Shown here in pieces: positions 11,199 to 19,351 of a stretch of DNA of 64,000 bases; position 1 is the first letter of the stretch, and every line of letters begins with the position of its first letter. The notes below the pieces were generated by a model, which searched no databases, was not told the origin of the DNA, and saw nothing but the letters and a program-made list of their open reading frames with translations. Origin of the DNA: Bacilli bacterium (GTDB lineage Bacteria; Bacillota_I; Bacilli_A; RFN20; CAG-826); the NCBI GenBank assembly GCA_024695105.1, contig JAILIV010000076.1, forward strand, positions 5,156-69,155. Direction: 5' to 3'. The translations under genes were made by a program, and so were the position numbers.

Positions 11199-12848
11199 TC
11201 AAACGTCGGCGTAGCACGATCCGCCGATGAATTCACGCATCAGCGAGTTGCTGGGAACCCATTCGTCGGGCATGTCGACGAAGAATTTCAACATGCGGAT
11301 GAGACGTTGGGCGACGGGGAAGTAGGGAGATTCCACCTCAATCGCCTGAAGCAGTGGCAGGGCGTATTTTTTCATGACCGGTAGCTCGTAGGAGAGCATG
11401 GAGTTATAGACGTAGTCTGACCCTTCTTGGCAGAGGTAGATCCAACGGAATTCGCCGGCGCGGACGCTAGGCCACATGGAGAGGGTCTCTTCCGCGGAGG
11501 CGTTACGGAACTTGTAGTCGCGGACGATGCGGCGAATGAGGCGCAAGTCGGTGAGGGAGAGGGGGTTATGGTCATCGAGGTTCATCTGGGCCTGAGGCGC
11601 GATGAAGATCTTGAACTTGGCCGACTTCGGGATGTCGGTGGTCATGCGGTCGTTGAGGGCGTGGATGCCTTCGATGATGATGGGCTCGTTCTTGCCGATA
11701 TGGATGGTTCTTCCGGGGACGCGTTTGCCACTTTGGAAGTCAAAACGCGGCAGGGTGACGGTTTCGCCATTGATCAAATCGAGCATGTTTTGGTTGAACA
11801 GCGGGATGTCCAGCGCCTCGATGTGCTCTAAGTCGGGTTTGCCATCGGCGTCTAACGGAGCCTCGCTTTTGGGGAGGTAGTAGTCGTCTAAGGAAATGCG
11901 GATGGGGTTGATGCCACGGGAAAGCAACTCGATGCGGAGACGGTTGGCGAAGGTGGTCTTGCCTGAGGAGGAGGGACCCGCGATGCAAATCAAGGAGATG
12001 GAGTCGATGTCTTTCTCAATGATTTCGCCTAGTTCGCACAGCATGCGGTTATGACGGGCTTCGCAGAGGTTGATGAATTCGATCGTGCCCCGGTTTTCAA
12101 TGGAACCGTTGATCCCGGCGACGGTGTCGCTTCCGACGATTTTGGCCCAGTCGTGGGATTCCTTAAGCGTGCGGTGGAAGGTGGGGTCATCTTCGAAGGG
12201 AGGGATCTTTCCGCCTTCTTCGGCGCGAGGGTATTGAAGCATGAAACCAGGGGTATAGAGACGAAGCTCGTAGTCATGGAGATAACCCGTGGACGGGACC
12301 ATGTGGGTGTACATGTAGTCCAAATACTCGGCGCAGGAGTAGAGGTGGACGTTGATTTCGGGACGGTATTTGAGAATGGCCTTCTTGTCCTCAAAACCGC
12401 ATTCGTCGTAGACGCGGGTGGCTTCCTCTAAGGAAACTTTCATACGCTTCAACGGAAGGTCGGCGGCGATGATTTTGTCGATTTCCGCGATGATGCGGTC
12501 ACGCATGGAAGAAGTGGCAAAGGTTTTGCCATCGATGAACGTGATGTTGATGGAACGGGAGACGTTATAGGAGAAGCGAATCTTAAGGTTGGGGTAGCAA
12601 CGGGCGAAGGCCATGGCGACCACATAACGGAGAGAGGCTTCATACACTTTGATCGCATCGTAGTCTTTGACGGTGAGAATCTCGACTTTGCAGTCGCGGT
12701 TGATTTCGTAGGTGAGCTCGCGGACGCGGTTATTCACTCGGGCGGCGACGGCGCGTTTTTCCGGGTCATAGTCCTTGATGATGCTCAAAATAGGGGTCTT
12801 TTTGTCCAATTTGATGGTGCGGTTGTCAATCTCGACGGTAAACGACAT
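11199..12848 (-). CDS. uridine-kinase/phosphoribulokinase-family nucleoside kinase with N-terminal TGS/ThrRS-like domains
   Basis: P-loop ICIAGPSSSGKTTFANRL, followed by LDDYY and EGIHALN as in Udk. The N-terminal ~250 aa resemble the TGS plus second additional domain of ThrRS. SD AGGAGG precedes the ATG. Confidence 0.8.
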   Translation of the reverse strand: MSFTVEIDNRTIKLDKKTPILSIIKDYDPEKRAVAARVNNRVRELTYEINRDCKVEILTVKDYDAIKVYEASLRYVVAMAFARCYPNLKIRFSYNVSRSINITFIDGKTFATSSMRDRIIAEIDKIIAADLPLKRMKVSLEEATRVYDECGFEDKKAILKYRPEINVHLYSCAEYLDYMYTHMVPSTGYLHDYELRLYTPGFMLQYPRAEEGGKIPPFEDDPTFHRTLKESHDWAKIVGSDTVAGINGSIENRGTIEFINLCEARHNRMLCELGEIIEKDIDSISLICIAGPSSSGKTTFANRLRIELLSRGINPIRISLDDYYLPKSEAPLDADGKPDLEHIEALDIPLFNQNMLDLINGETVTLPRFDFQSGKRVPGRTIHIGKNEPIIIEGIHALNDRMTTDIPKSAKFKIFIAPQAQMNLDDHNPLSLTDLRLIRRIVRDYKFRNASAEETLSMWPSVRAGEFRWIYLCQEGSDYVYNSMLSYELPVMKKYALPLLQAIEVESPYFPVAQRLIRMLKFFVDMPDEWVPSNSLMREFIGGSCYADV

Positions 12849-12973: not shown

Positions 12974-13067
12974 CCGATTTGAAGCGTGCGGACGCGGTGG
13001 CGTATTTTGTGTACCCTTCCTCGCGCGGTTGTGATTAAATAAGTCGGCTTTTTAGGAGGCTCACATT

Positions 13068-14270
13068 ATGCACAACATGGTATATATCCAATCTGGCGGC
13101 CCGACTTCGGTCATCAACTCGTCGCTTTACGGCGCGTACAAAGAAGCGATCCGCCACCCGGAGGAGATCGACCACATCTATGGTTCGATCAACGGCATCG
13201 AAGGTTTGATCGATGGCAAACTCTTCGATCTCCGCGAAGAAGACCCCGAGCAAATCGAATTGCTCATCCAGACCCCGGGTGCTGCCCTTGGCACCACCCG
13301 TCGGAAACTCCCGAAGGAAATCGACGACCCCGTCTATCAGCAGATTCTCGCCAACCTTCAGAAGTTCTCCATCAAATACGTGTTCGTCAACGGCGGAAAC
13401 GACTCGATGGATACCTGCGCGAAGATTTCCAAACTTTGCCAGGACAAGAACCTCGACATCCGCGTCATCGGCGTCCCCAAGACCATCGACAACGACTTGG
13501 CTTGCACTGACCACACCCTAGGCTATGCCTCGGCCGCGAAAGTCGTCATCAACTCCATCTATTCGATTTCCAAAGACGCCCTTTGCTACAAGAAGGGCAA
13601 AATCCATATCGTCGAAGTCATGGGCCGCAACGCCGGTTGGCTCACCGCCGCCGCGGACTTGGTCCCCGACGATGGCCGCCCCGACCTCATTTACCTTCCC
13701 GAGAATCCCTTCGACGTCGAGGAGTTCCTCAAGGACGTCAAAGAGGTCCATGACCGCAAAGGCATGGGCATCGTCGTCATCTCCGAAGGCTTGAAGTTCG
13801 ACCGTGGCGAAGCCACCGAGGTCGATTCCTTCGGCCATGCGCAGCTTTCTGGCGCCGGTCAGCAACTCGCCAACATCATTGAGCAGCGCCTTGGCCTGAA
13901 GTCCCGCGTCGTCGAACTCTCCTTGGTCCAGCGCGCCAACCCATTCTTGCTTTCCCGCAACGACCGCGACGAAGCGATCGAAGTCGGTGAGCTTGCCGTC
14001 TCCAGCGCCCTCCGTGGCGAAACCGGCAAGATGATCGTCATGAAGCGCGTCTGCAACAAACCCTATATCGGACGTTTCGAACTCGTTCCGCTGGATTTGG
14101 TCGCCAACGCCGAGCAGACCATTCCGCCCGAGTACATGTACGACAAGACCCGTATGTCCGATAAGTTCCGCGAGTACCTCCACCCGCTGATTGAGGGCAA
14201 CATCCATCTGAAGTACCGTGGTGGCATCGTCTTGCTGACCAACTTCAAGAAGATCCCCGTCGAGCCCTAA
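13068..14270 (+). CDS. pfkA: 6-phosphofructokinase (PFK family A), with residues suggesting PPi dependence
   Basis: Motifs SGGPTSVINSS, NGGNDSMD, GVPKTIDNDL, MGRNAGWL. SD AGGAGG lies 8 nt upstream of the ATG. Confidence 0.9.
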   Translation: MHNMVYIQSGGPTSVINSSLYGAYKEAIRHPEEIDHIYGSINGIEGLIDGKLFDLREEDPEQIELLIQTPGAALGTTRRKLPKEIDDPVYQQILANLQKFSIKYVFVNGGNDSMDTCAKISKLCQDKNLDIRVIGVPKTIDNDLACTDHTLGYASAAKVVINSIYSISKDALCYKKGKIHIVEVMGRNAGWLTAAADLVPDDGRPDLIYLPENPFDVEEFLKDVKEVHDRKGMGIVVISEGLKFDRGEATEVDSFGHAQLSGAGQQLANIIEQRLGLKSRVVELSLVQRANPFLLSRNDRDEAIEVGELAVSSALRGETGKMIVMKRVCNKPYIGRFELVPLDLVANAEQTIPPEYMYDKTRMSDKFREYLHPLIEGNIHLKYRGGIVLLTNFKKIPVEP

Positions 14271-14312
14271 GCTCCATTAGTGGTTGTCAAAAAAAACCAA
14301 TCAATCATCGAA

Positions 14313-14336
14313 AGCCGCCTTGGGGCGGTTTTCTTT
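14313..14336 (+). terminator. rho-independent terminator after pfk
   Basis: AGCCGCC-TTGG-GGCGGTT hairpin (one G-U pair) followed by TTCTTT. Confidence 0.65.
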
Positions 14337-14386
14337 ATGGCGCATGGGCGCATACAACGTATAAAATATCGTGAAGGAGGATTCTT

Positions 14387-14617
14387 ATGGCGAAAAGCAA
14401 GAAAGCGCGGACCCTTTCCAAACAAGCCCATCGTGGCATTCCGGAGGCGCAATACGCCCTCGGGCTTTGCTATTACGAAGGCAAAGGGGTAGCCAAAGAC
14501 GAGAGGAAGGGCGTCGAGTGGATTCGCGAAGCCGCCCTGCAAGGCTATAAGCCCGCCAAGGATTGGATGGAAGACTACGCGTTCGACGACGATCCAGGCG
14601 TCCAAGCGGAGAGTTGA
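14387..14617 (+). CDS. small Sel1-like repeat (SLR/TPR) protein, 76 aa
   Basis: Sel1 signature AQYALGLCYYEGKGVAKDERKGVEWIREAALQGY. SD GAAGGAGG is at 14373-14380, and a TATAAA/TAAAAT -10 candidate is at 14360-14367. Confidence 0.7.
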   Translation: MAKSKKARTLSKQAHRGIPEAQYALGLCYYEGKGVAKDERKGVEWIREAALQGYKPAKDWMEDYAFDDDPGVQAES

Positions 14618-14621
14618 GTTC

Positions 14622-14864
14622 ATGCTTCCAGATAAGCATCTTCTTTGCCCCAAATGTGGGAATTTCACCATGGAGCTTCAGTTTCCTGAGAACCAGCCCA
14701 TGGGCGTCTATGTGTGCTCCGTCTGCGGACATGTCGAAGAGGATTTGGGCGCGTTGCTCCCCAATGAAGACCAAATGCAAAAATTCCCCGGAGGTCAGCC
14801 TTCCGTTTCCAGCCCCACGGGGGATTTCGTTGCCAAAAAAGGCATGAAGAAAGGACAACCATGA
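14622..14864 (+). CDS. small zinc-ribbon protein, 80 aa
   Basis: CPKCG...(18 aa)...CSVCG pattern. It starts 4 nt after the previous stop. Confidence 0.6.
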   Translation: MLPDKHLLCPKCGNFTMELQFPENQPMGVYVCSVCGHVEEDLGALLPNEDQMQKFPGGQPSVSSPTGDFVAKKGMKKGQP

Positions 14865-15436
14865 GCCAAGCCATCGGATTGAAAGTCGCCCCGTTTGAGG
14901 GGTATGGATCTCGGAAGAGTTATTTCTTCGGGGATCCCATCTTACCCATTTCCCTCGTGGATAAGTTTGATGACGAGACATTCTTTTTCGGAATGATCAA
15001 CCTTAAGGAAATCGCTTCCCTTGACACGGAAGGCAAATTGCCCCACGAAGGTTTCCTCTATTTGTTCCTCCATCTTTTGGATAGCTTCGAGGACGAGTGC
15101 CCGAGCCACTTCGCCCCGGTGTTCTTCTATTCCAAAGTGGAGCCCACCCACGTCGTGGACGATTTCAACGAGGTGTTCTTGGAGACGTTCCCCAATATCG
15201 GCACCCCGAAAGGCATGGCGTTTTCGGCCGTCCCCGAGGACGCGATGGGCACCAAACTCTTGGGCGTCCCTTATGATTGGAATTACGAGAACAAGCCCAA
15301 AGAGCTTCTGCTCACGATTTCCCATTTGGACGAAGAGTTGGACTTTTGCGCCTATATCGATGGGCTTAGCTACGTCTTCTTCGGTCCGAAGGAAAACCCC
15401 TTCGGTGGCGCGACTATGTTCTTAGAACGTTCATAA
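14861..15436 (+). CDS. DUF1963 (YwqG-like) protein, 191 aa
   Basis: Family pattern: GDPILP...MINLKEIASLD..GKLPHEGFLYLFL in the N-terminal half and TKLLGVPYDW...LLLTISHLDEE...GLSYVFF in the C-terminal half. ATGA overlap with the upstream gene. Confidence 0.7.
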   Translation: MSQAIGLKVAPFEGYGSRKSYFFGDPILPISLVDKFDDETFFFGMINLKEIASLDTEGKLPHEGFLYLFLHLLDSFEDECPSHFAPVFFYSKVEPTHVVDDFNEVFLETFPNIGTPKGMAFSAVPEDAMGTKLLGVPYDWNYENKPKELLLTISHLDEELDFCAYIDGLSYVFFGPKENPFGGATMFLERS

Positions 15437-15448
15437 AAGGAGAAAAAC

Positions 15449-15739
15449 ATGAAATTGCATTACCAAGGATCCATCCGCCGTTTGCAAGGGTCTGGCATGG
15501 CCTTTGCCAGTTTCGACAATGACGTTGACCCCGCCGTCGTTGGCGTGGGGAAGATGGACCGCATCGCCGTTCCCGACTCCGCCGTCACGATTGACCGCGT
15601 GGGTGAGGAAGACATGGACTTCACGTTCCATTATTTCGATTCCAAGACCCCGTACCATATCACTCGGGGAGAACAGATTCAGGTGAAGAAGGAGGGCAAT
15701 GCCTTTGGTTTCCACCTGACCTTTACGCTGGAGGACTAA
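15449..15739 (+). CDS. small hypothetical protein, 96 aa (paralogue set A)
   Basis: SD AAAGGAG upstream. It shares the motifs IDRVGEEDMDF and GFHLTFTLED with the ORFs at 17279 and 17566. Confidence 0.6.
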   Translation: MKLHYQGSIRRLQGSGMAFASFDNDVDPAVVGVGKMDRIAVPDSAVTIDRVGEEDMDFTFHYFDSKTPYHITRGEQIQVKKEGNAFGFHLTFTLED

Positions 15740-15741
15740 CC

Positions 15742-16323
15742 ATGGCCAATAACTATTTCAAACTTCGTCGTTGCGAAGAGGAGGCCAACGAGGACCTCGA
15801 CCGCAGCAAACTTTTGGGCGCGCCCGTCATGCCTGAGGGTTTCTTCGAGAAACTGGGGCTAAGCGAAAGCGATTACTTCATCGCCCAGATCAACTGCTCC
15901 GAATTGCCCGATCACACTTACGCCCCGGAAAAAGGGTGGGTGTACCTGTTCCTCGACATCGACACGCTGCAACCCAAGGCTTTTTACACCGCAGAAGAGC
16001 CCGCCGAACTCTTAAGCGAGATCAACGCCAACTTCGACGAGGAAAGCTGTGGTGAGACCGTTGCGCATTATTTGGACTTCGTCGAGGAAAGCGAAGCCTT
16101 CGTTTTTGGACCCAAGGACAAGGATTTGGACCTTCAGGCTTACGCTGACACGGAAGGCAAAGTGACCTTGCTTCAAATCGACGCACTTGCCTTGGGGGAT
16201 TCCAAACTCTTCCAGTTCACCGACCTTGCCGTGGGTGATGGCTACCTCATTTTCCTCATCGACAAGAAGAAGCTCGCCAAAGGCGACTTTAGCGAAGTTT
16301 CGTTCATCGACTACGGCTATTGA
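15742..16323 (+). CDS. DUF1963 (YwqG-like) protein, 193 aa
   Basis: SKLLGAPVMPEGFF...AQINCSELPD...EKGWVYLFLD, plus a C-terminal LLQIDALA...GDGYLIFLIDKKKL. It starts 2 nt after the previous stop. Confidence 0.7.
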   Translation: MANNYFKLRRCEEEANEDLDRSKLLGAPVMPEGFFEKLGLSESDYFIAQINCSELPDHTYAPEKGWVYLFLDIDTLQPKAFYTAEEPAELLSEINANFDEESCGETVAHYLDFVEESEAFVFGPKDKDLDLQAYADTEGKVTLLQIDALALGDSKLFQFTDLAVGDGYLIFLIDKKKLAKGDFSEVSFIDYGY

Positions 16324-16326
16324 TCC

Positions 16327-17262
16327 ATGGACATCGCCGGAATCGCTAAGTTGGAATCGGATATCCTCGCCAAGCGCAAGGAGCTACCTTTCCTTTCGCC
16401 TTACGCCAAAAAGCAAGGGTTGAAGAACGAACTCGGTCTGCGACTGCGCCAAGGCAAGGACGCTATTTCGTGCAACGCCTTGATCGCGATGATCGAGGAA
16501 TACCAAAACCTATGTGAGGCCGCTCTGGCGGAGCAGTCCGAAGAATTGACCCCTGACGCCAGGGAAGCGGTGCCTTTCCTTCTTCGTTATCTCGAAGACC
16601 GGGCCAGCGATCCGAACGCGGATCCATCCCCAACGCTTAAAACCTATGCGTGTTACGTCGTTCAAGGCATCGACGCCCAGCTTTTCCTTCCCGCAGAGCA
16701 GGCCGTTTTGCTTACTGACTTGCTTCTGGAGTATCAAAAGGCGGGATTCCCTTGGAGAGCCAAAGAATACGCGTGCATGCTTCGCGAGCTTCTTTCCCAC
16801 ACCGATTCGGTATCGGTGATTTATACACGTCTTTGCGGTTTTTACCGTGAAGTGTGCGACCTTCGTTCCGCGATGGATGTGTGTCACATGGGGGCCAATG
16901 CGTTAAAACGCACCGGTAATCTAAAGGAGGCTGCGACCTTGGAGTCTTCCGCCCTTGGCAACGCCCTTGACGTTCTGGGCGTGATATTGCCAAGCGAGGA
17001 AGAAATCAAGGCGGAATACGGAGAGTACGCCGAAATCGTTTTGGGCTATCCGAAACGGTATTTATTGCGGCACGACCCACGCGAATCGGCCCCAGAATTC
17101 CAAGACGCCTATGACGAGGTCATGGAAGAAGTGCTGGAACGCTTGGGCACGGAGCCGGCGCATGGGCTCGTTCTATGGCACGCCATGACCGACGCTTTTT
17201 CTAGGCGTGGCATCTCCTGGCGGGATCCCCATCTTACCAATCCGGGCATTCGATTCGATTAA
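16327..17262 (+). CDS. hypothetical helical protein, 311 aa
   Basis: Coding-like composition, tightly packed between neighbours. I recognise no family. Confidence 0.6.
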   Translation: MDIAGIAKLESDILAKRKELPFLSPYAKKQGLKNELGLRLRQGKDAISCNALIAMIEEYQNLCEAALAEQSEELTPDAREAVPFLLRYLEDRASDPNADPSPTLKTYACYVVQGIDAQLFLPAEQAVLLTDLLLEYQKAGFPWRAKEYACMLRELLSHTDSVSVIYTRLCGFYREVCDLRSAMDVCHMGANALKRTGNLKEAATLESSALGNALDVLGVILPSEEEIKAEYGEYAEIVLGYPKRYLLRHDPRESAPEFQDAYDEVMEEVLERLGTEPAHGLVLWHAMTDAFSRRGISWRDPHLTNPGIRFD

Positions 17263-17278
17263 ATAAGGAGGTATCACT

Positions 17279-17566
17279 ATGACCCTTACCATTACCACTA
17301 TCTCTTGGGGTATCGACCGGCGGACCGGGGAACGTTCCGAAAACGTCGTCGGAAAAGATTCCTTTGAAGCCAAAGTCGGTCCTGTCGGTCCTGTCGGCGC
17401 AGGCCCGAGGAAAGCGACGTTTCAAATCCTCTCCGTCGAGGAAGATGGCATTTTGATCCACCTTTCGGACAAATTGAAAGACCTTCCACTTAAAGTTGGG
17501 CAGACCTACACACATCGTCCGTTCTCGATGGACGCTGGCTTCATTTACCATTTTGAGCTGAACTAA
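17279..17566 (+). CDS. small hypothetical protein, 95 aa (paralogue set A)
   Basis: SD AAGGAGG upstream. Motifs ILSVEEDGILI and GFIYHFELN. Confidence 0.6.
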   Translation: MTLTITTISWGIDRRTGERSENVVGKDSFEAKVGPVGPVGAGPRKATFQILSVEEDGILIHLSDKLKDLPLKVGQTYTHRPFSMDAGFIYHFELN

Positions 17567-17862
17567 TGGCCGCTAAGAAATTGTTTATCGTTGCCCGTTA
17601 TACCAAAGACGGTCTGCGGAAAAACGTGGAGGTTTCCGTTCCGTTTCGGGTAGGGACGCACCCGTTACCCCAAATAGAGCCCTTTAATGTGCGTGTCGAC
17701 GTCGTTCCAGGCGTTTGGCATGGATTCACTGAGATTAAGATAACCGAGGAAGGAAAACTTTGGTTCCCTGGCTGCGGTCCCTCTTATTTGAGAGACGGGA
17801 AAGCGATGTTTGAAATCCGTGCCCACGGAGTCGAGTATCATTTCGACTTCCGCGTTGAATAA
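17566..17862 (+). CDS. small hypothetical protein, 98 aa (paralogue set A)
   Basis: TAATG stop/start overlap with the previous gene. Motifs IKITEEGKLWF and VEYHFDFRVE. Confidence 0.6.
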   Translation: MAAKKLFIVARYTKDGLRKNVEVSVPFRVGTHPLPQIEPFNVRVDVVPGVWHGFTEIKITEEGKLWFPGCGPSYLRDGKAMFEIRAHGVEYHFDFRVE

Positions 17863-17915
17863 TGCGTTTTCCGCAGGACGTGCACTCGTTTTTCGCATTT
17901 TGAGTTATTAAAAGG

Positions 17916-17943
17916 AAGCGCTCTTTACAGGGCGTTTTCTTTA
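17916..17943 (+). terminator. probable terminator closing the 8-gene island
   Basis: AAGCGCTC-TTTACA-GGGCGTTT hairpin (with G-U pairs) followed by TCTTT. Confidence 0.5.
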
Positions 17944-18011
17944 TCCGCTAATGCGCTTACATTCATGCCCGCGTTGTTTTGGCGCGCGCCGCGTGGCAAA
18001 ATAACGCTGAT

Positions 18012-18503
18012 ATGAAATCGCTGGTGGAACGTTATGAATCGTGGGACGAATTGAGGAAGAACCTTTTTATTCTCCTCGTCGTGGCCGCCTTTGGTGCCCT
18101 TATCAGCGTCATCTTCATTTTTTTGGATAACATCGGCGTGCTCTTCGGCTGGCTTTTGGGCTCTGCCGTGAACATCTTTGCCTATTGGTCCATCCATCAG
18201 GGCTCCGCTTATATCCTTTCCAATTCCGAAAAACGGTCCCAGGGATATTTGGCCATCCTTTGGGGTTTGCTTCGCTTCGTGCTGTACGCGGGCTGCTTGG
18301 TTCTATCGGGCTTGGCATCGTTCCGTTGGGGCAGTTTAAGCCATGGGTATTGCAATCTCATCGCCTGCGCCTTAGCACTTATGCCTACGTGGATTATGCT
18401 CGTGCTCGTCACGCTCATCCGTAACAACAAAAGTTCCCAAAAAACTAAGGAAATTCCGCCCGAGGAAGAGAAAAAAGAAGACGTCACGGAGGAAGAGGAA
18501 TGA
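18012..18503 (+). CDS. atpI: ATP synthase protein I-like small membrane protein
   Basis: It sits immediately upstream of atpB with an ATGA overlap and has four hydrophobic segments. The ORF-track start at 17979 is TTG, so ATG 18012 is preferred. Confidence 0.65.
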   Translation: MKSLVERYESWDELRKNLFILLVVAAFGALISVIFIFLDNIGVLFGWLLGSAVNIFAYWSIHQGSAYILSNSEKRSQGYLAILWGLLRFVLYAGCLVLSGLASFRWGSLSHGYCNLIACALALMPTWIMLVLVTLIRNNKSSQKTKEIPPEEEKKEDVTEEEE

Positions 18504-19351
18504 GACTCTTCCCTTTGTTTCTTTCCGACCCCCTAGGCGACATGATCGCGTCTTTTGGGGATCCGACGTTCCGTATTTCCGGTCCGCTTCTTTCTTCCCT
18601 CGCCGTCATGCTGATCGTGGCCGTTTTGGCCATCATCGTCGGTATCCAAGCCCGCCGCCATGACCCAATGAAACCTTCGAAGGGCCTTTTGGCTTTGGCG
18701 GAAGGCTTTGTGGCCTGGCTTCAGGATTGGACACGGCAAATCATGGGTCGCGACCCGGGAAATTGGCCCGGTTATTTCCTCGCCCTGTTCAGCTATTTGT
18801 TTCTTGCTTTCATTTGGTCCATCACGGGATTCCCTTCGGTCATCGATACCTTGGTGATGCCCTTGGCCCTTTCCTTGGTGATGTTCGTTTTGATTCAATT
18901 CACCGCGCTTCGTTATAAGAAATGGGGCTATTTCCATCGCTACATCGAGCCTGTCCCCCTGTTTTTGCCCATCAACCTCGTGACGATGTGGACGCCGATC
19001 ATTTCCACGACGCTTCGTATGTTCGGTAACTGCATCGCCGGATCGGTCGTCATCGGGTTGCTCAATTGGGCTACCAAGAATTTATCCGTATCCGTCTTCT
19101 CCGCTTGGGCGGAAAGCTATGCCTCTAGCGGCGCGAGCATGCTCAATAGCCTCGACACGCCCGCCGCGATCGTCTTTGGACCCGTCATCATCGGGATCCT
19201 CAATCTCTACTTCGCCTTGTTTTCCGGGTATATCCAAACCCTGGTCTTTGCTTCCCTTAACGGGGTGTGGATCGGGGCCGAGATGCCTGAGGACCGCGCG
19301 ATGGGCCTGTCCAGCCAAGCGACGCGGAGCATGGAAAGCAAGTTGAGCTAA
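18500..19351 (+). CDS. atpB: F-type ATP synthase subunit a
   Basis: Conserved stator arginine in TTLRMFGNCIAG, multiple TM helices, and the expected operon position. Confidence 0.9.
   Translation: MRLFPLFLSDPLGDMIASFGDPTFRISGPLLSSLAVMLIVAVLAIIVGIQARRHDPMKPSKGLLALAEGFVAWLQDWTRQIMGRDPGNWPGYFLALFSYLFLAFIWSITGFPSVIDTLVMPLALSLVMFVLIQFTALRYKKWGYFHRYIEPVPLFLPINLVTMWTPIISTTLRMFGNCIAGSVVIGLLNWATKNLSVSVFSAWAESYASSGASMLNSLDTPAAIVFGPVIIGILNLYFALFSGYIQTLVFASLNGVWIGAEMPEDRAMGLSSQATRSMESKLS

Follow-up and report, generated by a model that had tools for sequence, protein, structure and literature searches.

What could hold together eight small genes that stand between a glycolytic gene and the ATP synthase operon of a rumen bacterium? 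The genes in question, here called g1 to g8, are eight open reading frames (ORFs) on the plus strand at positions 14387-17862 of a 64,000-nucleotide stretch (the window) of contig JAILIV010000076.1, which comes from an uncultured rumen bacterium of the Bacilli. Among their products are members of the DUF1963/YwqG (TYPP) family, which is widespread in bacteria and has had a solved structure for two decades; its eukaryotic relatives are essential ribosomal-protein chaperones, and we know of no function or partner for bacterial DUF1963/YwqG. We give about an even chance to the view that the eight genes are one self-contained operon that encodes a joint cytoplasmic assembly, non-enzymatic and based on protein-protein interaction. 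A first-pass annotation of the window had described eight tightly packed same-strand genes between two hairpins, flanked by genes of glycolysis and ATP synthase, and this description holds. All eight ORFs are present where it had placed them, with intergenic gaps from g1 to g8 of 4, -4, 12, 2, 3, 16 and -1 nt, and both boundary hairpins fold strongly. The block lies 3' of a gene for a 400-aa diphosphate-fructose-6-phosphate 1-phosphotransferase (PPi-PFK; NF010675, 440 bits) and 5' of a 174-aa membrane ORF in the atpI position, followed by atpB, E, F, H, A, G and D. The proposed cytoplasmic location of all eight proteins is also upheld, as no transmembrane segment or signal peptide was found in any of them (maximum Kyte-Doolittle 19-residue mean ≤1.25).

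A single-sequence search with g6 returned one homologue only, look-up of the exact proteins returned none, and a scan of metagenome contigs gave three loci only; other loci were recovered by scanning genomes with a degenerate g6 pattern and then with a g7 profile. With the near-identical pairs L017/L018 and L026/L027 each counted once, there are eight complete loci, the window and seven others, so that the full cassette has at least seven carrier loci beyond the window, in rumen or gut Bacilli. The order g1-g2-g3-g4 (one or two copies)-g5-g6-g7-g8 is the same in the window, L017/L018, L029, L028, L026/L027, L016, L010 and L011. Products in L017/L018 are 76, 71, 187, 96, 194, 310, 94 and 94 aa long, L029 has the same eight genes plus a 161-aa gene, and the remaining five loci have the same set with g4 doubled in tandem; L007-L009, L013 and L014 hold partial cassettes (fragments). 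Duplication of g4 and optional trailing genes, namely a ~160-aa HTH-like g9 and a 413-aa Sel1 protein, are the only variation among the eight complete loci. Identity to the window proteins ranges from 27% (g8) to 66% (g1), the 4-nt overlap between g2 and g3 is kept in all eight, no gap exceeds 21 nt, and the flanking genes are different at every distinct locus. Divergent genomes thus keep the same genes in the same order and with the same translational coupling. In the close pair L009 and L013, the ratio of nonsynonymous to synonymous substitution rates (dN/dS) is 0.09 for g6 and 0.05 for g7, and both genes are under purifying selection. Conservation and these dN/dS values (0.05-0.09) also rule out spurious ORFs; overlapping minus-strand ORFs (e.g. 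14385-14981) are not conserved features.

The g9 gene is absent from the window and was located in six other loci (Table 1). Identity between the Bacilli and Clostridia copies is 40-55%, so that g9 is better conserved than the core proteins. Its match in PHROGs is to the C-terminal part of phrog_4031 (1.7e-8), and one member matches HTH_26.

Several cassette components are also found joined in single proteins, where g6C denotes the conserved C-terminal domain of g6: g7 with g6C (P0131), g7 with a TYPP domain (P0161), g7 with g8 (P0170) and a MORN protein with g7 (P0168). In L011 a beta domain is fused to a Sel1 unit, and in L021 a zinc ribbon is fused to a beta-rich C-terminal region. The suggestion that a DUF1963 gene and a gene for a ~95-aa protein recur as a pair elsewhere proved correct, the two being adjacent in more than 20 loci in addition to the fused P0161. 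Taken together, fixed membership and order across deep divergence, coupling, purifying selection and fusions argue that the cassette proteins act together, and they probably form a complex. A further protein, P0169 (132 aa), joins the N-terminal half of g7 to a double-stranded-RNA-binding motif (dsrm, 1.1e-23) and may come from chimeric assembly or from a truncated gene call.

The g7 family is rare, with 77 representatives among 1.84 billion proteins and 75 clusters in a 5.8-billion set, and a search by one pattern found it in 20 of 185,579 species genomes, all metagenome-assembled genomes (MAGs) from rumen or gut. In gut Clostridia, g6C is common as a 219-aa short form of g6 inside same-strand islands of 15-20 genes. 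These islands contain g7 copies, a 76-aa Sel1 protein (~50% identical to g1), g9 with HTH_26, DUF1963 proteins, zinc ribbons, MORN proteins, large Sel1 proteins and a bL12-C-terminal-like protein. Two gene pairs recur in Clostridia, g7 followed by a TYPP gene in at least 13 loci and g7 beside g6C in at least 7, and mirror g3-g4 and g6-g7 of the window. A human-gut Clostridia variant (L030 and L035-L041) runs Sel1 (568 aa)-g7-TYPP (181)-Ser/Thr kinase (431)-vWA (243)-PP2C (282)-transglutaminase-like (321)-g6C (218), and its loci are 80-98% identical among MAGs assigned to different species; the vWA, PP2C and Ser/Thr kinase set is present only there and is absent from the window cassette. Upstream of the L021 island lies an HSP70-DnaJ-hexapeptide-…-GGGtGRT gene group with a phage-type integrase. 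A Clostridiaceae MAG (L012, and also L015) encodes a stand-alone 264-aa g6-like protein with g6C, its gene having a lipase-like gene on one side and uvrA on the other; no other cassette gene is near the L012 copy.

The first-pass annotation had offered two options, an orphan immunity island or an undescribed multi-component system, and the evidence favours the second over the first. As an orphan polyimmunity cassette, the block would be inherited or transferred as a unit, and each protein would independently confer immunity to a different polymorphic toxin (e.g. of the LXG/type VII secretion kind) from competitors. We regard this as unlikely. Polyimmunity loci are same-strand tandem arrays, usually without a toxin gene and often beside a recombinase (Zhang et al. 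2012, PMC3482391), and the loci described here have that look, being same-strand, tightly packed and made up of small cytoplasmic proteins with no toxin gene nearby. Repeat scaffolds (ankyrin, HEAT, LRR) are among the immunity proteins of that survey, the component fusions resemble 'polyimmunity proteins', the Clostridia islands exceed the cassette in size and variability and hold duplicated g7 copies as well as MORN and Sel1 proteins, and one related island has a phage-type integrase beside it. However, polyimmunity loci vary in gene number and type even between strains (PMC3482391), whereas composition and order are fixed here at 27-66% identity in at least eight loci. The conserved 4-nt g2/g3 overlap argues for stoichiometric partners, and selection on g6 and g7 is strongly purifying, without any sign of diversification. 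No Pfam Imm, SUKH or SuFu family was matched by the eight window proteins (E ≤1) or by any of the 75 cassette proteins from the eight loci (E ≤1e-3), and the ~25 loci examined are free of toxin and secretion genes to a distance of 10 kb. A recombinase was found neither in the window nor in the Bacilli loci, the only integrase being the one near the L021 island. The proximity of ywqG to the ywqH-K toxin locus of Bacillus subtilis, which had been put forward as a hint of immunity, is anecdotal, since DUF1963/YwqG has no occurrence in the searched text of the immunity-family survey (PMC3482391), and our literature search found no link between YwqG and immunity.

The block had also been thought to be an accessory insertion, and comparison of the pfk-atpI interval bears this out. 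The nearest relatives of the window's pfk gene (80-91% identity) are in rumen MAGs labelled Erysipelotrichaceae or Bacilli. In one of these, L004 (pfk 81% identical), the order is uridine-kinase-like gene, pfk, atpI-like gene, atpB, without interruption, and only a few bases separate pfk from atpI; because pfk there directly abuts the atpI-like gene, the block is an accessory module. The remaining relatives have different pfk neighbours, and no island gene lies near pfk in any of them within the DNA fetched. Base composition was considered as a sign of recent horizontal acquisition and gave no clear signal, as the G+C content at third codon positions of the island genes (0.54-0.70) overlaps that of host genes (0.62-0.82). 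Insertion scars were likewise considered and rejected, with no convincing direct repeat or att-like site flanking the block.

Patchy accessory distribution in unrelated genomic contexts is also what a new anti-phage or anti-mobile-element defence system would show, in which detection of a phage protein would be the task of the scaffold and TYPP proteins and g6C or g7/g8 would be the effector, for instance by sequestering an essential host or phage factor. We consider it improbable that the cassette is such a system. Defence-type or mobile genes are found near some loci, namely TIR_2 and AAA_15 (L028), a Mu transposase (L026), an integrase (L021) and RhuM (L016), and one relative is on a putatively viral IMG/VR contig. 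The kinase, vWA and PP2C genes of the Clostridia variant have the domain composition of TerY-P modules, for which roles as signalling switches and also as defence systems on their own have been reported (PMC11090510). On the other side, no PADLOC model convincingly matches the window's cassette proteins, the triad of L030 is matched by generic kinase models only, with its vWA and PP2C proteins unmatched, and there is no nuclease, NADase, pore or other effector-type domain. The window locus lies between housekeeping operons, outside any defence island, and tblastn with g6 and g7 found no match in 50,697 phage and 72,556 plasmid records. In PHROGs the window proteins gave only generic Sel1 and zinc-ribbon similarity, and NCBIfam was uninformative for all eight.

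The L028 neighbourhood contains two typical defence-type genes: a TIR_2-domain gene, accompanied by one for a 749-aa partner, is 3 kb upstream of the cassette, and an AAA_15/AAA_21 ATPase gene is 6 kb downstream of it.

The cassette proteins themselves were examined for domains and motifs. Among the 75 cassette proteins from the eight loci, Pfam families are limited to DUF1963, Sel1, zinc-ribbon, HTH_26 and TPR, with no match to a toxin or enzyme family, so that by sequence the detected domains (Sel1, DUF1963, zinc ribbon, TPR-like) are all of the interaction type. This agrees with the Sel1 protein, zinc ribbon, two diverged DUF1963 proteins and 311-aa helical protein of the first-pass annotation. 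DUF1963 corresponds to the TYPP domain, an all-beta two-repeat module with a channel, which has been proposed to bind extended peptides in a chaperone-like manner (Burroughs and Aravind 2014, PMC4275035). The g5 protein (TYPP-b) clears the Pfam PF09234 gathering score (23 bits), its family keeps a KLLGxPV motif and the glutamine of AQI(N) invariant, and the family profile aligns with B. subtilis YwqG (1PV5) over N- and C-terminal segments (E 0.0015). The g3 protein (TYPP-a) falls just under the same cut-off and is tied to g5 by BLASTP (1e-6) and by hhalign (96.5%). It has the motifs FFGxPxLP and KLLGVPxDWNY and lacks the glutamine of the AQIN motif; across its family F(F/L)GxP and LLG(V/T)P are conserved, and there is no glutamine at the corresponding place (GMI or TISH). 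In the eight loci, 11 of the 16 proteins at TYPP positions have a DUF1963 match at E ≤1e-3. A 30-nt direct repeat (83% identity) shared by g3 and g5 encodes LDTEGKLP in g3 (residue ~52) and ADTEGKVT in g5 (residue ~133), which are non-equivalent TYPP positions, and may reflect internal duplication within the TYPP domain or gene conversion.

The g6 protein has no Pfam match. It is predicted by AlphaFold2 (AF2) to be all-helical, with a mean predicted local distance difference test score (pLDDT) of 65; values are 89-98 over residues 250-311 and poor outside residues 160-311. The TPR assignment of its body comes from a weak sequence match and from Foldseek, whose top matches were all TPR proteins, none of them significant. 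The g6C domain (residues ~247-311) is strongly conserved (HDPxE…FQxxYDEVMEE…W…W..P…NPxxxFD-COOH) and ends exactly at the C-terminus in all homologues.

Three ~95-aa paralogues had been recognised among the remaining genes, and this stands for g4 and g7 but not for g8. Pairwise BLASTP showed no similarity among the three; alignment of the g4 and g7 families with hhalign gave a probability of 92% (E 5.8e-7), and g8 was not significant against either. The g4 protein matched no family in Pfam, PADLOC, NCBIfam or PHROGs. The 75 g7 homologues are all 85-104 aa long, nearly all 91-99, and lack any relevant Pfam domain; G11, R14, P81, D85 and G87 are invariant loop residues. The AF2 model of g7 is confident (pLDDT 92, predicted template-modelling (TM) score 0.81, 73-sequence alignment), and Foldseek found no significant neighbour for it in the PDB or BFVD (best E 0.16-0.3, TM ≤0.40). 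The g8 protein has no Pfam match, its orthologues share a Y(V/L)GPDxGY motif, and its start codon overlaps the g7 stop (TAATG, 17566). PDB sequence searches with g3, g4, g7 and g8 profiles gave no match.

In g1 the Sel1 match (PF08238) exceeds the gathering score of 30.7 bits and covers one full repeat (residues 19-54), between a basic N-terminus (xKSKKxR) and an acidic C-terminus (FDDxAxVQxE) that are both conserved in the orthologue alignment; orthologues are in L017 (66% identity), L016, L019 and L021. The four cysteines of g2 are kept in six of eight orthologues, and in the other two CxxH replaces the second CxxC. Pfam and NCBIfam searches placed g2 in no specific zinc-ribbon family at its cut-off. 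Its tail is rich in proline and glycine and ends in a motif (FP…S…F…KK) conserved in the eight orthologues, and its stop codon overlaps the g3 start (ATGA, 14861).

How might these proteins fit together? The assembly would divide into two sub-modules, each with a TYPP protein and a small beta-domain protein of the g4/g7 family: the zinc ribbon g2, TYPP-a g3 and g4 in one, and TYPP-b g5, the scaffold g6, then g7 and g8 in the other. By analogy with the eukaryotic TYPP proteins PDCD2/Tsr4, chaperones dedicated to uS5 that grip an extended stretch of it, and in line with the published view of the domain, the TYPP proteins would probably be adaptors or chaperones that hold an extended partner peptide. 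For that peptide we infer two candidates, the conserved g2 tail with its many prolines and glycines and the C-terminal NPxxxFD of g6, which is invariant. Scaffolding would fall to the Sel1 protein g1 and to the TPR-like part of g6.

The precedent raises another possibility, that the cassette is an accessory set for translation or protein biogenesis, in which a host client would be chaperoned by the TYPP proteins, as uS5 is by PDCD2/Tsr4, with the remaining proteins as co-factors. Dedicated chaperoning of uS5 by PDCD2/Tsr4 is, to our knowledge, the only TYPP function known from experiment, and the Clostridia islands regularly encode a bL12 C-terminal-like protein (Ribosomal_L12, 5.4e-13). We nevertheless hold a translation role to be very doubtful: Burroughs and Aravind (PMC4275035) saw no evidence that bacterial TYPP proteins act in ribosome biogenesis, the cassette is dispensable, since it is absent from close relatives, and in the window it has no bL12-like gene. 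The bL12-like proteins occur in the islands either stand-alone (76 aa) or fused, and the Pfam value is that of the L021 protein (Table 1).

The preferred reading remains a joint, non-enzymatic assembly encoded by one operon. On weak evidence, a function in stress or inter-genomic conflict is its most likely class of role, because of the patchy distribution, the varied contexts, the occasional mobile or defence neighbours and the variant that bears a kinase and a phosphatase. More tentatively, the cassette could be the minimal form of an unrecognised multi-protein class in gut and rumen Firmicutes. Such a class would combine TYPP proteins, g4/g7 beta-domain proteins with no detectable structural neighbour, and g6C, and would act without a conventional enzyme, e.g. 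as a conflict or defence machine that works by sequestration, or as a cytoplasmic assembly of a new kind.

Several observations weigh against the preferred reading of a joint assembly. Interaction among the cassette proteins is predicted from the genes, and the promoter ahead of g1 is putative by sequence reading and may not be one. All carriers of the cassette are uncultured MAGs. Gene fusions and same-strand packing are also seen in unrelated immunity domains, as in 'polyimmunity proteins'. PADLOC-DB 2.0 gave two chance-level matches only for the window's eight proteins (E 0.074 and E 0.0039, the latter over the zinc-ribbon knuckles), and for L030 no match to the core proteins, the kinase alone matching generic kinase models. 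The kinase/PP2C variant is a single lineage. Finally, the module contains no recognisable effector or enzyme, which leaves action as a conflict system hard to explain.

Table 1. Positions of the cassette genes, boundary signals and other features (window coordinates unless a locus is named).
Feature	Position	Strand	Description	Basis
g1	14387..14617	+	76 aa, one Sel1 repeat	Pfam Sel1 2.3e-11, 44.2 bits
g2	14622..14864	+	80-aa zinc ribbon, CPxC…CxxC	Weak zinc-ribbon matches; conserved cysteines
g3 (TYPP-a)	14861..15436	+	191 aa, divergent TYPP/DUF1963	Pfam DUF1963 21 bits, cut-off 23
g4	15449..15739	+	96 aa, beta-rich, remote g7 homologue	hhalign, family against family
g5 (TYPP-b)	15742..16323	+	193 aa, canonical but compact YwqG-like TYPP/DUF1963	Pfam DUF1963 1.4e-12, 48.9 bits
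g6	16327..17262	+	311 aa, predicted all-helical, TPR-like body and C-terminal domain g6C	AF2, weak TPR matches
g7	17279..17566	+	95 aa, eight-stranded all-beta, signature gene of the system	Profile search, AF2 model
g8	17566..17862	+	98 aa, beta-rich, always directly 3' of g7	Orthologues in 9 loci
Left boundary	14310..14339 (stem 14310-14333, then U-run)	+	Intrinsic terminator of the PPi-PFK gene	RNA fold -16.9 kcal/mol, z -2.6
Putative promoter and ribosome-binding site	14360..14380	+	-10-like box TATAAAAT 14360-14367 (TATAAA/TAAAAT) and Shine-Dalgarno AAGGAGG 14374-14380, 5' of g1	Sequence reading
Right boundary	17911..17945 (14-bp stem 17911-17940, U-run)	+	Terminator-like hairpin before the atpI-position gene at 17979	RNA fold -17.5 kcal/mol, z -3.7
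30-nt direct repeat	15014-15043 (g3), 16138-16167 (g5)			
atpI-position ORF	17979-18503		174 aa, TTG start, membrane, 4-nt overlap with atpB	
Uridine-kinase-like gene	11199-12848	-	549 aa	
g9 copies	L009:1830-2306, L010:9285-9773, L016:10582-11076, L028:10608-11099, L029:9081-9566, L021:11262-11729			
TIR_2-domain gene and partner	L028:909-4059			
AAA_15/AAA_21 ATPase gene	L028:16405-18084			
Human-gut Clostridia variant	L030:1620-8767			
bL12 C-terminal-like proteins	L021:14384-15187, L023:13903-14133, L031:14319-14936, L032:10336-10818, L019:15118-15618			
HSP70-DnaJ gene group and integrase	L021:1-6685			
Stand-alone g6-like gene	L012:9491-10285			

The boundary signals were examined in the same way. 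The claim that a -10 box and Shine-Dalgarno pair opens the block is borne out as far as a -10-like box and AAGGAGG are visible, but the promoter scan found no sigma-70 consensus on the plus strand ahead of g1, and no good -35 element is present there. A simple terminator scan listed neither boundary hairpin, and an Rfam search of 13000-19000 found no RNA element. The two hairpin regions (14310-14345 and 17911-17950) share a 3' half, GGGCG(G)TTTTCTTTAT, and after it comes a GC-rich GCGCAT/GCTAATGCGC stretch; their likeness could be a duplicated terminator left by insertion, or chance. In the flanks, no NCBIfam model matched the atpI-position ORF, whose counterpart in L004 is 132 aa. The 549-aa protein encoded upstream on the opposite strand has a uridine-kinase-like domain at residues ~283-460 only, after a long unassigned N-terminal region, and is kept beside pfk in L004 (62% identity).

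The cassette gives DUF1963/YwqG a defined and evolutionarily stable set of candidate partners, namely a zinc ribbon, the g4/g7 beta proteins, the g6 scaffold and a Sel1 adaptor, and brings in two protein families that Pfam does not model (g4/g7 and g6C). Related islands of 8 to 20 genes are common in uncultured gut Clostridia, one form being wired to a kinase/phosphatase switch. If the cassette does represent an unrecognised TYPP-based class, it would place bacterial DUF1963/YwqG in a functional setting for the first time; a conflict module that lacks a classical effector would extend the range of conflict systems now known, and even an unusual immunity block would define new immunity families all the same.

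By composition the cassette matches no known kind of system, and our literature search found no description of the gene set, the closest being a generic remark on multi-copy YwqG operons. With polyimmunity loci (PMC3482391) and the acquired interbacterial defence (AID) islands of Bacteroidales it shares same-strand small cytoplasmic proteins, the lack of an adjacent toxin, repeat scaffolds and occasional fusions. Unlike them, it keeps its membership and order across distant genomes, lacks known Imm families, has translationally coupled genes that evolve under purifying selection, and has no recombinase in the window. The likeness to TerY-P triads belongs to the sister architecture (L030, L035-L041), which inserts kinase, vWA and PP2C genes between the TYPP and g6C genes; this similarity is one of domain composition only, and the window cassette has no such genes.

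Closer parallels are with the TYPP proteins. Operons with several YwqG-like copies are known from 'several organisms', and TYPP fusions to Zn modules have also been noted (PMC4275035). The cassette resembles these in having a bona fide DUF1963 protein (g5) and a divergent one (g3) in one operon, and in its Zn-chelating module, which here is a separate, translationally coupled zinc-ribbon gene. It differs in that its gene set and the partner families g4/g7, g8 and g6C are not described in that work, and in that its TYPP proteins are compact (~190 aa against 264 for YwqG), g3 also being without the conserved glutamine. In comparison with PDCD2/Tsr4 and uS5, the cassette is bacterial, accessory and operon-encoded with seven partner genes, has no MYND insert and gives no indication of a ribosomal client. 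What the two have in common is the TYPP superfamily, and this suggests that in the cassette, too, an all-beta module may grip an extended segment of one specific partner.

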